Origin: a virus
Lineage: Duplodnaviria > Heunggongvirae > Uroviricota > Caudoviricetes
Direction: 5' to 3' (one strand)
Length of the DNA stretch: 35,879 nt
Virus record (IMG/VR): IMGVR_UViG_2548877009_000012
Position numbers: made by a program. Shown here one piece after another: positions 3,001 through 9,000 of this stretch. How positions within the stretch are numbered: position 1 is the first letter of the stretch; each line of letters starts with the position of its first letter.

Positions 3001-6000
3001 TTTCTTTCGTCCATGGATTAAGGCCGTACTGGTTGGCAACGATCAGCAATGCGATGAACTGCGCATCGCTGGCATCACCTTTAAATGCAGTCTGGCGAAG
3101 AGTGGTGATCAGTTCCTGTGGGTCGACAGAATCCATGCCGACACGTTCAGCCAGCTTCCCTGCCAGCGTTGCGAGAGCTGTACTCATCTGGTTTATACCT
3201 CTGAATCAATATAAATCTGGTGGCGGGCAATGGTTTCAACCATGTACCGGATGTGTTCTGCCATGCGTTCCTGAAAATCGACATCGTCATCAAATGCACG
3301 GGCAATGGCTTTTTTGCTGGCTCCATGACGTTGCAGATTATCGATGCACAGCGATTCAAACAGGTGCTGGGGCAGACCTTTTTCCAGGTCGTCCGCCAGT
3401 TCAGTCTCATTTTCTTCACGGGTAATTTGCCGGTAGTGTCGTGCCCATGACTGCTCTTCAATGCGATCGGGGATAAGCCAGGCATTCATGATTTATCACC
3501 TCCAAAATTTTCAAGCCTGTTGGCAATCATGATTGCGATATCAGGGATTGCTGGCGCTGTTGCGACGCATGCAGGGTTTGCGCACAAACCATAGACGGCT
3601 GCAAGCACGAGTTGCCTTTTCCAGTCGAAATCTGCTTGCTCTGAATCATCATTATTGTCAGAAGCATCACTATCTGGATCGATGTGAACAACCGAATCGT
3701 GTTCCTGAGTTGTATCAACAGCATTTTTCTGAATGTATTCATTCTTCATTTGTGCCTGGTCATCTCCAGCAGCGGTCTCATTTTCTCCAAAAGTTTCAGC
3801 GTAAGTTTCATCTCCCATTACTGGACCACAGTCAGGGCAATGCCCGCCACTGTTCTGACCGCATGCGGTGCAAACCTTTTCCACTTCCTGTTGCATTACT
3901 GGCCCAGGCTGTTGCTCTTCTGGTCCGTTTTGTTGCGTATCCGGGCTGTTTTGTTCCACTTTGGATTGATTCTGGTCCTCAGTGTCGCGAGTCTGGATCC
4001 CCTTCACCCACTTCGGGTCGGTTGGGTCGCTGATGCCTTCAACGAACTCCCCACGAGAGGCAGCCAGCAATTTGTCTGCATCGACAGGATTTTTGGGCAA
4101 AATGTTTTTCCTGGCTTCATAGAGTTCTGCTCTCAGTTCCTGGTATTTCGTTTCTACAGATGAGACATTTTCCAGTGATTGCGTGTCCGCATTATGTTTA
4201 ACTGGAATTTCTTCCACTGATTCAGGCGCTGCCTGTTCATTAGACATTGCGTCCGATGTTTGCTGCTTTTCTTCATCGTCATGTATCTCTTCTGCTGTTC
4301 CGCGCTGCGGCATCGGGGCTGATGAGCGACCGCAGGCAATTTCCACGATTTCCGGATCCGGGTTAGAGTGATCGGTTTCGGTCAACACTTTGTTGAGATA
4401 TTCAGTCACGCGCGCCGGGATAGCCTCAATGCCAATTGGTGCTTCTTTCACTGAAGCCACCACAATGGCGCGGGAATAATCCAGCCCACCGGGCATGGCG
4501 ATGAATTTGTCACGGAAAACAGAAAAGGGCGGTTTATTCTCTGCAACGATTTCTTCAACGCGTTTTGCATGTGCAGGGTGCAGGTTATAAATATCCACAT
4601 CCATTGAACGGGCCAGAACGCCAGTGGCAATGTCTCGCGCCAGTGATGCCTGATTGTGGGTAAAGCCTTCGCCACGATTGGTAAGATTTCCGCCGCCAGC
4701 GTTAGCACCGGAAGGCGTACGAGTGATGCCTGTAACATAATTTCCTTTCTGCCATTCTTTTGCCAGCAATCCCTGATCCACATAGTCTGTTTTCATCCAG
4801 GTGGAGATGAACTTGTCGAATTCGGCCGGGCTGATATGACGGGGTGTTGCGTGAGAGAATGCCTTTCCAACGGATTGTGCCAGTCTTCCCAGATGATAAT
4901 TCGTCAGCTTATCCAGCTCTGGATGTGAACGCACAGCAGTAAGCAGGCTCTGAAGGTAACTGTCTTCTGTGTCCATCTCCATACGGATCACGTTATTTCG
5001 TTGTTCGGGTGTGGCGTGATGCCGGTATTTTCCATCTTCATCTTTGCTGAAGAAGAAGAGGTGAAGGAAGCGATGAGTAAGGCTCAGAGTGGCGACGGGA
5101 ATTTCACACTCAGAACAGTCATCGTCGCTGTCCGGGGATTCGCTTTTCTCCACATCATCCGGAATAGTTCCGTCCAGGTTATCGTAGTCATCGCCAGCTG
5201 TTGTGGCATCTTCACCGTTGATGTTGTCATCGAAGGGGATTGCCATCATGGTGATGCCATCTTCCCCGCCTTTTTCATAGCGGTTGCAGAATTCAGTATC
5301 AAACACGCCTTCCGGTGGAAGGTCATTCACGACGGGGAAATTTACGCGAACGGGTTTTTTGAAATCATCCTCGTCGTAGCCTGCATCGTCCATGGCTGCA
5401 ATGCAGCGGGAAACTGCGACAGAAAGTTTTCTGGTATCAGCCCAGAAAAAACCGCCTTTGATGCCAAGGCGTTTTCTGACTTTATCGTTTTTTGCTTCGC
5501 AGTGCAGTGCAAAAGTTTGTTTATCAGCGCTCATTGTATTTAAACCTCTGGCTGGATTAGAATTAGCGGCCCTTTGTCTGATTTCTCCGAATACAGTGAC
5601 GCAGGGGGGAGTCCGGTAGCCTGCGCTGCCGGATTTTTTATTTCAGTGTAAGGTTGCCTGGTTTGTTGTTTTGTGAGTTGTTTTTTTCTTTTCATGCTGG
5701 CAGTCAGAGCAGTTGCATTCGCCATTTTCTCTGAGAAGTTGAAGTGCCAGGGTCAGTTCCTGAATTCTTTGTGGATCAATATGACTGTCGACAATTTCAG
5801 ATGCAGCATGAATATATGGGCTGGTGGTTTCGCAATATAAACCGAAGGAAACAAAGCGACTGTCTTTATATTCGTTATTTCCAACTTCTGTAAGCACTGA
5901 AAAAGAAAATACAAAGTCGATTTTGTGTTTTTTGCATATTTTACTGATGCGTTCTGCAATTTCTTTGAGTTCATTTATTGCATCAGGACTGGTTTCGGAA

Positions 6001-9000
6001 AAAATTTCATTTTGCGCAAGTTCTTTCATTTTGATTTTCCCGTGATTGATAATTAATGTGGTTTTTATTTCGGTTTGTCTGTTACAGATATGGAAGGTGT
6101 ATTTTATTACTCGTCACAACTACTCTGCTTTTACAGGTAAGCCATCGCGCCCGATGAAAACTTTAATCATGCAGTCGGTAATGCATGTTTTTGTAGTCAG
6201 GCTACGAATATAGAGTTTTCTCTTTTCAATATTGTTTGCTGAAGCGATATATGTGCGGCCTTCATGAAGAACATAATCGCCAGGTGTCACGCACTGACGT
6301 GGTATTTCATCAGTTCCGAAGTGATGAGCAATCATAATTATCTCCATTTTCACAAATGAACTTTGTTGATGCGGTGCCTGGTGCCTCCAGGTGACGTTAA
6401 CCAGTTAACAATTAACGCCGGAGCAGGGGATGATGATTTTCCGTGACATCCTGTCGGTTTAACTGTTCCGCGTGCGCATAGCCGCATTCACCGCATCATA
6501 AAATTCACTTTTAAAAAGGGCGGACATCAGCAATCGGCAAACCGATGTCCGCCAAAGAGGATATTGATACATGGATGTTGCAGCGGGGTTGTCACTCAGG
6601 CGTCTGGGGCGATTTCCATTATTTACGATGCACTTGAAACATTCCTTGATCGAAAACTTTCATCTGTCACCGACGGAACATCGAGTAAGCAATAACATTT
6701 AACACACACTCTAAATAACAAGGGGTGGGCTTGATACCGTTCTTTTCAAGCTCACTCGTAATCACCTCCAGAAGTCGTGCGCCCATGAGAATTGTCTTGT
6801 GGGATGAAGCTATTACGCCGTCGCTGATATTGCTGTTTATTTCTATTGCTTCATTTTCACCATTCGCGCTAACTTCGGATATGTTATTTTCACTCTCCTG
6901 TTTCAGCGCTTTTTCTGCCATCCGGATGCGTTCCTGCGTTGCGGAGTTTGGGCTAAGTCGATAAACCTGTCTGGCATCTTCCAGAAGCAGGGCGATAATG
7001 TGCTTCAGTTCTGTTTCGTTCATAGTTAACTCCGGTAGTTGCAATTTATTAATATCAGGCGGTCAGCTCTTTAAGCTTCTGAACTGCTTTATTCATTTCA
7101 TCCATACAGTCGATGAATTCGTCCAGTTTAAGCTGCATTTTTCCGGCGGCCTGAAGAATTTCAAGTTTTAAGGGCGCAAGTTTTTTGTTGAATACATCAT
7201 CTTCCTGGCGTTTTTTCTCCGCAATTTCGGCGGCTTTCAGCAATTCTTCCGCCTGCTTTCTGAGTATTTCTGGTGAAGGTGAAACTGCTTTTAGGTTATT
7301 CATTTCAGGTTCCTGTTGTTGCAGAATTAATTTGTTGCATTCTCTGCGTGAGCGTTTCATCGCAGATTCGCACTTCTTGCAATAAATGGCTCTCCCGTCA
7401 CGTTTGCTGGCATCTGAATAAAAATCATCGACTGATTTTGTCTGCCCGCATCTGGTACATAATTTTGATTGAAGGTCCTTAATGATTGTGACGTTTCCTT
7501 CCCGCTTGGGATATCCATATTTTTTGTGGCGGAAAAAGGTTACTCCGTTACCAGAACCTTCTTTTCTGACCTTAAATACAATGATGCTTTCCCGTTTATC
7601 GATAAAATCTATGAGCTGGTTTCTCTCCTTTCCTGACAGTTCGGCAAATGTCTTAACTTTTTTAGTAACTTCCGTAAGGCGAACGCCGTCAGGCATTTTT
7701 TCAACGAAGTTTTTAATCTCTGCAAGCGGACGCCATAATTTTTGCGGCAAAACTGAAGGCGTGGTCATCAATCACCTCGCTGTTATTGTTCCGGATTTGC
7801 GATAGCCAGCTGCGTAAAGTGCAGTGTTTGGAAGACAAGTAGAGCCTTCATATTTTCTGGTTAATGTCGTTATCGTGACTACTTCAGCTCGCATTGCGGC
7901 TTTGCGTTTGCACTGTAAGTACACCCGTGAAGGTGTGGGGCGGTGCAGTTTATCAGCGCTTGATGCCTCCAGACTCTGAAGCTCAGCCCGGTGTGCTCTG
8001 CGGCGGGAAGCTGCGGTGCCTTTAAATTCTGTTTTTCTGGACATAGATTTCTCCCGAATAAACTTTGGCGATGCAATCTCGAAGCCTCCCCTGAGATGAT
8101 TGCTTCGGCATTGCACCCGACAGCTTATGCGGTTGGGCGATCTGGCTTTGCAGCCACGTAGTCGAGTGTTCGACGTTGTTTAAAGAGCTTTCCAATTGGG
8201 ACCGCGTTGTTATCGGTGACCTGTTGGTAAAATGATTATTAACCGTTGGTTAGTGTTAGTCAATAACTCAAAGTTAAAATTATTGTAGGGGAATTCTATG
8301 TTTTTGATTTTTAGTTAATTATTATTGCTTGTTCGGTGAGCGACGGTTATCAAGTATGAAGGGGTATAGAAGCTAGGATAGATGAGTTTTGGCTAGCTGG
8401 GTTAATAAAAAACCCGGCTCTGAGGCCGGGGGAGAGGGCTAAAGCAGAACTGAATACCAGAAAACTTTTCCGATAATCTCCACGCTTTGAGTATCTGCTT
8501 CTTCGTCAGGGTACTCTTCACTGTTATAACTGCGTATGATTAGTTTTCCACCGGGGCGTCTGTACAATAGCTTTATACGCTTCAGTTTTTCATCACCGAC
8601 ACCAGGCTGTGCGATGGCGTAGAGTTTGCCGTCAACAATACGTTTGTTGTTTGTGTCTACTGCGATTGTTGTTCCATCTGGTATCACGGGTTCCATGCTA
8701 TCACCAGTAGCTGGAAAACAAAGCACACCAGAACCATCACTGTTAGCTCCGACACGGCGCAAGGTTGCTTTTGAGAAGCGTAATTTAAAACCATTATGAT
8801 CTTCGCAATGAACTCTTCCGTCACCGCATGCAAACTCAATGTCTTTCAGATATGGCACCTCAACTTCATCATCTCGTAGTGGTGTATTTCTGTCCCAAGT
8901 TTCAAGGGAACCCCATTCTGATTCGTTTGGAATAGAAGGTCGCTGTTTTACGGATGGCTCGTTACTGCCATACTCCAACCACTCCGGCTTCACGGAAAGC

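Follow-up and report, generated by a model that had tools for sequence, protein, structure and literature searches.

The segment downstream of the antitermination gene N in a 35,879-nucleotide (nt) stretch of DNA from a Caudoviricetes virus (IMG/VR record IMGVR_UViG_2548877009_000012; this whole stretch is called the window, and all coordinates refer to it) is likely the early-left (pL) accessory region of a lambdoid Shiga toxin 1 (Stx1) phage of the POCJ13 and 75/02 type. We read it as a mosaic of two blocks with a regulatory RNA element between them: a promoter-proximal block made up of N and open reading frames (ORFs) 1 and 2, and a Rac-like block made up of kilR (ORF3), ORF4, and recE-gam-recT. 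Both the phage and this type of region are already known; the segment holds one characterized gene, one diverged known RNA element, and three conserved uncharacterized proteins. A first-pass annotation of this DNA had described four co-directional ORFs of 237, 118, 71, and 128 amino acids (aa) with plausible ribosome-binding sites and no recognizable family. The four ORFs, all on the minus strand downstream of N, and their ribosome-binding sites were confirmed from the sequence, the site of ORF4 being weak. The lack of a characterized family holds for ORF1, ORF2, and ORF4, but not for ORF3, which is KilR. The features of the segment, from the promoter side, are as follows.

8235 to 8263, minus strand: putative pL-like sigma-70 promoter (TTGACT, 17-nt spacer, AATAAT; 10 of 12 matches in a consensus scan)
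8161 to 8188, minus strand: candidate nutL, with a boxA-like GCTCTTTAA (8188 to 8180) and a hairpin GTCGAACACTCGAC (8174 to 8161), assigned from the lambda paradigm
7772 to 8044, minus strand: antiterminator N, 90 aa, arginine-rich N terminus (Pfam PF25694 N_peptide, 91.3 bits against a cutoff of 27.9; N in the POCJ13 annotation)
7055 to 7768, minus strand: ORF1, 237 aa, basic (isoelectric point [pI] 9.5), with a winged helix at aa 9 to 81, a zinc ribbon at about aa 100 to 140, and a C-terminal helix at aa 166 to 236
6667 to 7023, minus strand: ORF2, 118 aa, acidic (pI 5.2), soluble; GGAG 7 nt upstream of the start
6513 to 6567, minus strand: DicF-homologous hairpin and intrinsic terminator (stem 6553 to 6519, U-run 6517 to 6513; 5′ seed diverged)
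6336 to 6512, minus strand: conserved structured kilR leader, STnc100/PasD-like (22-bp closing helix and two conserved hairpins; kilR Shine-Dalgarno sequence unpaired)
6120 to 6335, minus strand: kilR (ORF3), Rac-type Kil, inhibitor of FtsZ ring formation, 71 aa; GGAG 7 nt upstream of the start
5643 to 6029, minus strand: ORF4, 128 aa, acidic (pI 5.7), orphan family; weak GGGA 10 nt upstream

Identity and layout of the segment

Positions 5400 to 8200 are 99.1 to 99.2% identical, over the full length, to the Shigella Stx1 phages POCJ13 (KJ603229) and 75/02 Stx (KF766125) of the genus Diegovirus, which have the same gene order and essentially no difference from the window. The records of these two phages name ORF3 as Kil, call the other three ORFs hypothetical, and leave the RNA elements unannotated. 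The Escherichia phages phiSTEC1589-Stx1c and PhiR5_2 are 92 to 93% identical over the same positions, and at least 80% of the region is carried by 61 of the 5426 complete Escherichia coli genomes searched. A synteny comparison, which the first-pass annotation had suggested, showed that the gene order recurs in independent E. coli prophages as N-ORF1-ORF2-(69-aa antisense gene)-DicF-like hairpin-leader-kil-(ydaE)-ORF4-recE-gam-bet. This order fits a Rac-like block, running from the leader and kilR to recE, having been joined to an N-ORF1-ORF2 block. The earlier placement of the ORFs between N and the recombination module of the pL region was borne out, with N, RecE, and Gam recognized by Pfam and RecT by the POCJ13 annotation. 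So was the AT richness of the distal part, since the GC content is 37.5% in ORF4 and 31% in the kilR-ORF4 spacer compared to 49.7% in the whole window.

All four ORFs have homologs and show purifying selection. The ratios of nonsynonymous to synonymous substitution rates (dN/dS, Nei-Gojobori) were below 1 in the informative pairs, at 0.06 to 0.13 for kilR, 0.13 to 0.16 for ORF1, 0.34 to 0.61 for ORF2, and 0.25 to 0.73 for ORF4, and the homologs differ by in-frame indels. On both counts, ORF1 to ORF4 behave as coding sequence.

ORF3 is a Rac-type KilR

By its sequence, ORF3 is a Rac-type KilR, and several lines of evidence agree on this. First, it matched the NCBIfam profile NF008465 (“FtsZ inhibitor protein”) with 153.3 bits against a cutoff of 92, over profile positions 1 to 71 of 73. 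Second, it matched phrog_294 (“Kil protein for bacterial septation inhibition”) at 3.5e-37. Third, BLASTP aligned it to E. coli K-12 KilR with 93% identity over 71 aa. Finally, the gene lies in a Rac-like context, with the conserved leader upstream and recE downstream, ydaE and racC being missing. The KilR of Rac has been published as preventing FtsZ ring formation (cited in PMC3961180 and PMC5793797), and from the 93% identity we infer that ORF3 would likewise block the FtsZ ring and cause filamentation. In K-12, kilR expression is described as being held off by Rho/NusG-dependent termination (PMC4150792, PMC5793797).

ORF3 is the only one of the four ORFs to match a characterized early protein. 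When the four proteins were compared by BLASTP to RacC, YdaE, YdaF, SieB, YdfC, YdfD, DicB, DUF1391, rac10/rac11, the 933W-type Ea10, cIII, and Kil proteins, and KilR, the sole match was that of KilR to KilR. The earlier statement that neither kil nor cIII could be identified is thus half right: a kil gene is present, as ORF3, but of the Rac type, and cIII and a lambda-type kil were not detected in our scans. Lambda Kil (PF06301) and cIII (PF02061) gave no Pfam match among the four ORFs and the small ORFs on both strands from N to recE. More broadly, Pfam, PHROG scans of the small ORFs, and BLASTP detected no homolog of lambda-type Kil, cIII, Ea10, Ral, or SieB. The scan of small ORFs on both strands for cIII or hidden genes returned only the remnant of a phrog_2605 gene and a probably spurious ORF in the leader matching phrog_24763, both described below.

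The suggestion that genes at this position encode host-takeover or exclusion functions also stood in part. KilR is a division inhibitor, though one already characterized, but SieB-like membrane or exclusion proteins among ORF1 to ORF4 are unlikely: none of the four contains a hydrophobic 19-mer above 1.1, and so none has a membrane segment. For Stx phages, the identity of ORF3 means that filamentation of the induced host should depend on the Rac-type kil and not on lambda kil. The genome paper on Shiga-toxin-producing S. sonnei (PMC5447701) is silent on kil and antitermination.

The spacer between kilR and ORF4 (6030 to 6119) is where ydaE is absent from the window. In phiSTEC1589 and E. coli ST866, this gene separates kil from ORF4, and in Rac it follows kilR.

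A DicF-like hairpin and a structured leader precede kilR

The first-pass annotation had placed a strong terminator at 6522 to 6556, between ORF2 and ORF3. The hairpin is real and strong, but the coordinates were about 3 nt off, and the element is not anonymous: it is a diverged homolog of DicF, followed by a leader of the kilR/dicB kind. It folds with −23.9 kcal/mol (z score, −4.0; 1 of 200 shuffled sequences folds as well) and is followed by CUUUUU. Its flanks can be aligned in register with Rac and, in Qin-like prophages, with the stretch from dicF to dicB, and it occupies the corresponding position, between small upstream ORFs and a division-inhibitor gene, with flanks homologous to DicF loci. 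At the aligned position, the Rfam DicF model was found in four relatives, namely, E166 (72.5 bits), an O157:H7 prophage (43.5 bits), K-12 Rac (39.1 bits), and phiSTEC1589 (35.6 bits). In the window, however, AUAUCCUC stands in place of the DicF 5′ seed UUCUGGUGAC, 5 nt have been deleted, and the loop differs from that of DicF, where the anti-Shine-Dalgarno sequence ACUCCG is found. Judged by sequence, then, the hairpin is homologous to DicF but is not a member of the DicF family.

The DNA matching the hairpin-leader block (6355 to 6607) is widespread. It matches unannotated DNA in 4610 of the 5426 complete genomes (85%), lying directly upstream of dicB in Qin-like prophages and upstream of kilR in Rac. 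The same regulatory RNA block is thus used for two division inhibitors that are unrelated to each other, KilR and DicB, and it can apparently sit under N control in an inducible Stx phage.

The leader that follows the hairpin has a minimum free energy of −57.3 kcal/mol (z score, −3.4), and none of 200 shuffled sequences was as stable. It contains an inverted repeat (6362 to 6376 and 6489 to 6503), and the consensus structure is retained in 10 kilR and dicB leaders, with compensatory change in two pairs. The closing helix and the hairpins are shared with the model of the small RNA (sRNA) STnc100. According to a 2026 preprint, STnc100 is related to PasD, which is likewise a prophage sRNA and which the preprint traces to Stx-converting phages. 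The element studied here differs from these sRNAs in being an intra-operon 5′ leader of kilR, no independent promoter having been found in the scan. In Qin, the 53-nt DicF gets its 3′ end by termination at the DicF hairpin, and a 72-nt form arises when RNase III processes read-through RNA (PMC5069750). The 22-bp helix of the leader starts just past the U-run, which would be the expected site of that RNase III cut. A 45-aa ORF inside the leader (6350 to 6487, minus strand) matches phrog_24763, a family that probably stems from earlier overannotation of conserved noncoding or overlapping sequence.

Proposed order of expression

The pL-like promoter sits between the cI terminator (8413 to 8430) and N, and the scan for promoters and terminators detected the hairpin of the candidate nutL on the opposite strand as well. 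On the minus strand, the scan found no other intrinsic terminator from N to the DicF-like hairpin, so synthesis of ORF1 and ORF2 would accompany that of N. The assignment of promoter and nut site and the order of expression that follows from it, including N-dependent read-through, are modeled on lambda and Qin. Once the repressor is lost, pL transcripts would carry N, ORF1, and ORF2 and would mostly end at the DicF-like hairpin, the predicted intrinsic terminator that gates the two blocks. RNA polymerase modified by N at nutL would then read through this terminator. As a result of the read-through, KilR would be made, assembly of the FtsZ ring would be blocked, and the host would form filaments; ORF4 and the RecE-Gam-RecT functions would be expressed after it.

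Several points weigh against this organization. First, the Rfam DicF model (RF00039) gave the hairpin 15.8 bits (E value of 0.28 in a 161-nt search), which is below the gathering threshold of 48, and it returned no match at an E value of ≤1 in a 4.1-kb search. Second, the Rfam STnc100 model (RF02076) aligned over its whole length (1 to 206) to positions 6321 to 6519 with 32.2 bits (E value, 2e-4), short of its gathering threshold of 47; relatives of the leader scored 28 to 34.5 bits. Because both models scored below gathering, membership of either RNA in its family is not established. Third, pL, nutL, and the read-through are proposed from consensus-level resemblance, and Rho-dependent terminators could halt transcription before the hairpin, as in Rac. 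Finally, ORF2 and ORF4 have no homolog of known function and a high dN/dS, and ORF4 in addition has a weak ribosome-binding site and no usable structure model.

The hairpin might have a second role, as a working DicF-type trans-acting sRNA. In that case, an Hfq-binding RNA of about 55 nt, freed by termination or processing of pL transcripts, would repress ftsZ or other host mRNAs, and division would be hit twice, by the RNA and by KilR. We regard this as conceivable but doubtful. The hairpin matches DicF in position and sequence, and both the terminator and the upstream stretch to UAUCAAU, which abuts the DicF 5′ end in Qin-like copies, are conserved. The corresponding hairpin of Qin releases DicF by termination and RNase processing (PMC5069750), and by eye the 3′ arm of the hairpin is partly complementary to the ftsZ leader (GGCGACA and AAUCGG). 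However, the 15.8 bits compare to a gathering threshold of 48, the seed UUCUGGUGAC is replaced, 5 nt are deleted, and the loop is different. The energy of a duplex between the RNA and the ftsZ leader was no better than that of shuffled sequences (P = 0.23), in a crude test that is nondiscriminating since canonical DicF fails it too (P = 0.135). A hairpin that gates the Rac-like block as an intrinsic terminator remains our preferred interpretation.

ORF2 and ORF4 are conserved but fast-evolving

Judging from the substitution ratios, ORF2 and ORF4 are coding but fast-evolving, and both have a narrow distribution. ORF2 belongs to phrog_2982 (6e-67), and its 15 homologs come from E. coli or Shigella wherever the source organism is named. 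Of its sequence, the first 42 aa are conserved; the remainder is variable, and several database copies are truncated or divergent at the C terminus. No match to ORF2 was found in Pfam, NCBIfam, or the PDB. ORF4 belongs to phrog_2016 (3e-67) and has 26 homologs, all from E. coli wherever the source is named. It was found in 77 of the 5426 complete genomes, including O104:H4 HUSEC2011, with identities down to ∼87%, and in every locus inspected its neighbors were kil (or ydaE) on one side and recE on the other. When 1.84 billion representative sequences were searched exhaustively with HMMER, ORF4 had five matches and no informative distant relative: four were close relatives or fragments, and the fifth was a 650-aa repeat protein (1e-5). 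By BLASTP, ORF2 and ORF4 are unlike the genes at the same position in Rac or Qin.

The remote-homology and structure-prediction searches that had been proposed at the outset were informative in part. They gave a winged-helix model for ORF1, but the AlphaFold2 (AF2) model of ORF4 was unusable (predicted local distance difference test [pLDDT] score, 55.8) and no remote homolog of ORF2 or ORF4 was found. Profile searches of the PDB with the family alignments of ORF1, ORF2, and ORF4 gave no significant match, and Pfam, NCBIfam, and PADLOC returned only subthreshold noise for these three proteins. As whole proteins, they matched only PHROG families of unknown function. The sole match to a PADLOC defense model was a weak one, of ORF2 to a 2TM effector (E value, 0.0047), and ORF2 has no membrane segment.

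What these two proteins might do can be framed in two ways. The first is that ORF2, ORF4, or both are anti-defense or host-takeover inhibitors, that is, small acidic blockers of a host or competitor protein that evolve in an arms race. Their small size, acidity (pI 5.2 and 5.7), solubility, dN/dS of 0.3 to 0.7, and narrow distribution would suit such a role, as would their place in an early operon with Gam, KilR, and recombination genes and, for ORF4, in an AT-rich, moron-like patch. However, this support is circumstantial, with no PADLOC, Pfam, NCBIfam, or PDB match and no structure model, and we consider the role unlikely. Less probable again is the second possibility, that both are decaying or dispensable frames without a function in the phage. 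The relatively high dN/dS, the narrow distribution, the truncated or divergent C termini of ORF2 copies, and the weak ribosome-binding site of ORF4 are in line with decay, and this phage has already lost two neighbors, ydaE and the antisense gene. Against this, dN/dS was <1 in all informative pairs, indels are in frame, lengths hardly vary (118/119 and 128/130 aa), and long ORFs persist in an AT-rich stretch. ORF4 has also been retained beside kil or ydaE and recE in 77 genomes, in spite of identities that fall to ∼87%. ORF1, ORF2, and ORF4 are therefore best described as conserved uncharacterized early genes of clinically relevant phages, and they make reasonable, though not exceptional, candidates for functional screens.

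Two further features border these genes.

6564 to 6695, plus strand: remnant of an antisense gene, C-terminal ∼30 codons (phrog_2605, 7e-7, aa 13 to 42 only)
5606 to 5640, plus strand: terminator-like hairpin followed by U6, between ORF4 and recE (plus strand, −26.5 kcal/mol, z score of −3.4; minus strand, −17.1 kcal/mol, z score of −1.75)

In related prophages, an intact 69-aa gene on the plus strand overlaps the 3′ end of ORF2, and Qin-like prophages have a small plus-strand gene at a similar place. The presence of only a remnant here points to a deletion in the phage between ORF2 and the DicF-like hairpin. The hairpin at 5606 to 5640 faces the pL operon, and no plus-strand gene is evident upstream of it; it may end an antisense transcript. 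A 61-aa ORF (5540 to 5725, minus strand) that overlaps the 3′ end of ORF4 matches phrog_29463, a family that probably reflects overannotation.

ORF1 is a conserved gene, usually next to N, with an inserted zinc ribbon in its long forms

The ORF1 start codon (ATG) lies 4 nt past the TGA stop of N and is preceded by the ribosome-binding site GAGGTGA. Its 67 homologs are from Enterobacterales, and in Kluyvera, other prophages, and metagenome contigs the gene is the next one after N, often 2 nt past the N stop. In Providencia, the homolog is a few genes further along the same operon, and short relatives of 172 aa are located in the nin region. In the alignment, the core of the family has two parts, an N-terminal domain of ∼90 aa and, at the C terminus, a helical region of ∼75 aa; two homologs have an extra N-terminal AlpA-type helix-turn-helix.

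The AF2 model of ORF1 (pLDDT, 80.8) consists of a winged helix, a ribbon, a disordered linker, and one long helix. The N-terminal part shows the three helices and beta-hairpin wing of the winged-helix fold, and Foldseek searches of the PDB gave weak matches only, to winged-helix regulators. The wing contains a conserved basic sequence, RHKKYGYPKR. This wing and the pI of 9.5 suggest that ORF1 binds nucleic acid. Our best guess from the model, held with low confidence in its details, is that ORF1 is a dimeric nucleic-acid-binding early protein.

The CxxC...CxxC motif that the first-pass annotation had noted in ORF1 was confirmed as C104-x2-C107 and C130-x2-C133. Its zinc-ribbon-like character also held, but the ribbon is a lineage-specific insert and not part of the protein core: it occurs in long forms only and is absent from most homologs. 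The only match in BFVD was a 48-aa ribbon of phage HNH endonucleases (∼1 Å root mean square deviation), and the PHROG matches to endonuclease VII, HNH, and Lar-like families do not extend beyond the ribbon and the stretch C-terminal to it (aa ∼100 to 190). No catalytic HNH (beta-beta-alpha-Me) domain, as in homing endonucleases of the HNH or endonuclease VII type, lies next to the ribbon of ORF1. The matches cover the ribbon only, and there is no Pfam HNH match; after the ribbon, the model has only a short helix, the disordered linker, and the long C-terminal helix. In the Serratia prophage loci L015 and L016 (3411 to 3905), an HNH_3/AP2 homing-endonuclease gene lies directly upstream of the ORF1 homolog, in the expected place of N. 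Together with the HNH-type ribbon, this adjacent gene hints that the ribbon of the long forms was captured from HNH homing-endonuclease elements.

A more far-reaching interpretation has two parts. In the first, ORF1 would be the founder of an unrecognized class of immediate-early regulators coupled to N: a dimer built on a winged helix, here with an HNH-type zinc ribbon that it has captured, whose target would be nucleic acid of the phage or the host in the time before antitermination begins. In the second, ORF2 and ORF4 would represent new inhibitors of host defense or physiology, and the DicF-like hairpin, with its swapped seed, would give a new sRNA that has targets of its own. Taken jointly, we find this improbable. 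Least probable is that ORF1 is a restriction alleviation protein of the Ral/Lar kind, in the place of lambda ral after N, whose zinc ribbon modulates type I restriction-modification: the ribbon (aa 100 to 163) matches phrog_5558 (“Lar-like restriction alleviation protein”) at 1e-9, the gene adjoins N as at the ral position in lambda, and a Ral gene lies a little downstream of an ORF1 relative in one locus (L014), but an insert absent from most members cannot be the core function of the family, the ribbon matches endonuclease VII/HNH PHROGs and BFVD HNH proteins equally well or better, no Pfam Lar or Ral match to ORF1 was found at an E value of ≤1, and the coexistence of Ral with a short-form ORF1 homolog in L014 argues against equivalence.

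Comparison with Rac, Qin, and lambda

The two-block layout resembles three known systems in different respects. The Rac prophage (K-12 kilR-ydaE-racC-recE) shares the KilR protein, the leader, the DicF-like hairpin, and recE downstream, and positions 6100 to 6531 are ∼85% identical to it. However, ydaE and racC are absent from the window, and ORF4, which is unrelated to RacC, is in their place. Upstream, the window has N, ORF1, and ORF2, whereas Rac has sieB, ydaF, ydaG, and racR. Control by N antitermination is expected here and not only the silencing by Rho/NusG.

The dicBF region of Qin (ydfABC-dicF-dicB-ydfD) has the same layout, in which small ORFs are followed by a hairpin/terminator, a structured leader, and a division-inhibitor gene, and its hairpin flanks and leader are ∼80% identical to those of the window. 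However, the inhibitor is KilR here and DicB in Qin, the DicF seed and loop have been lost (15.8 bits compared to 72.5 bits for canonical DicF), and ORF2 is unrelated to YdfA, YdfB, and YdfC.

The pL region of lambda and of 933W-type phages (ral, sieB, ea10/ssb, cIII, kil, gam) occupies the same position between N and gam or the recombination genes and also contains a division inhibitor, and early N-dependent expression would be expected in both. At this position, Stx phages of the 933W/Sakai type carry ea10-cIII-kil, whereas the division inhibitor of the window comes from the unrelated Rac family. Another difference is that, here, two extra ORFs separate the first strong intrinsic terminator from N.

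Other features of the window

The recombination module begins downstream of ORF4 and includes the following genes.

3486 to 5534, minus strand: RecE-family exonuclease, 682 aa, start of the module (Pfam Exonuc_VIII, 46.5 bits)
3193 to 3489, minus strand: gam (Pfam, 206.6 bits)
2402 to 3187, minus strand: recT (from the POCJ13 annotation at the corresponding position)
1725 to 2405, minus strand: YqaJ-like exonuclease gene (Pfam YqaJ, 101.5 bits)

The module (1725 to 5534, minus strand) thus has two different exonuclease genes, RecE-family and YqaJ-like, that flank gam and recT. Outside it, a repeat of ∼85 nt occurs in three copies on the plus strand (10025 to 10184 and 10864 to 10956), parts of which are 89 to 100% identical. 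Two copies are in tandem just upstream of a 360-aa gene of the replication region (10215 to 11297), and the third is inside this gene, whose counterpart in the POCJ13 annotation spans less and is called primosomal protein I. The repeats may be origin iterons or the product of a duplication.

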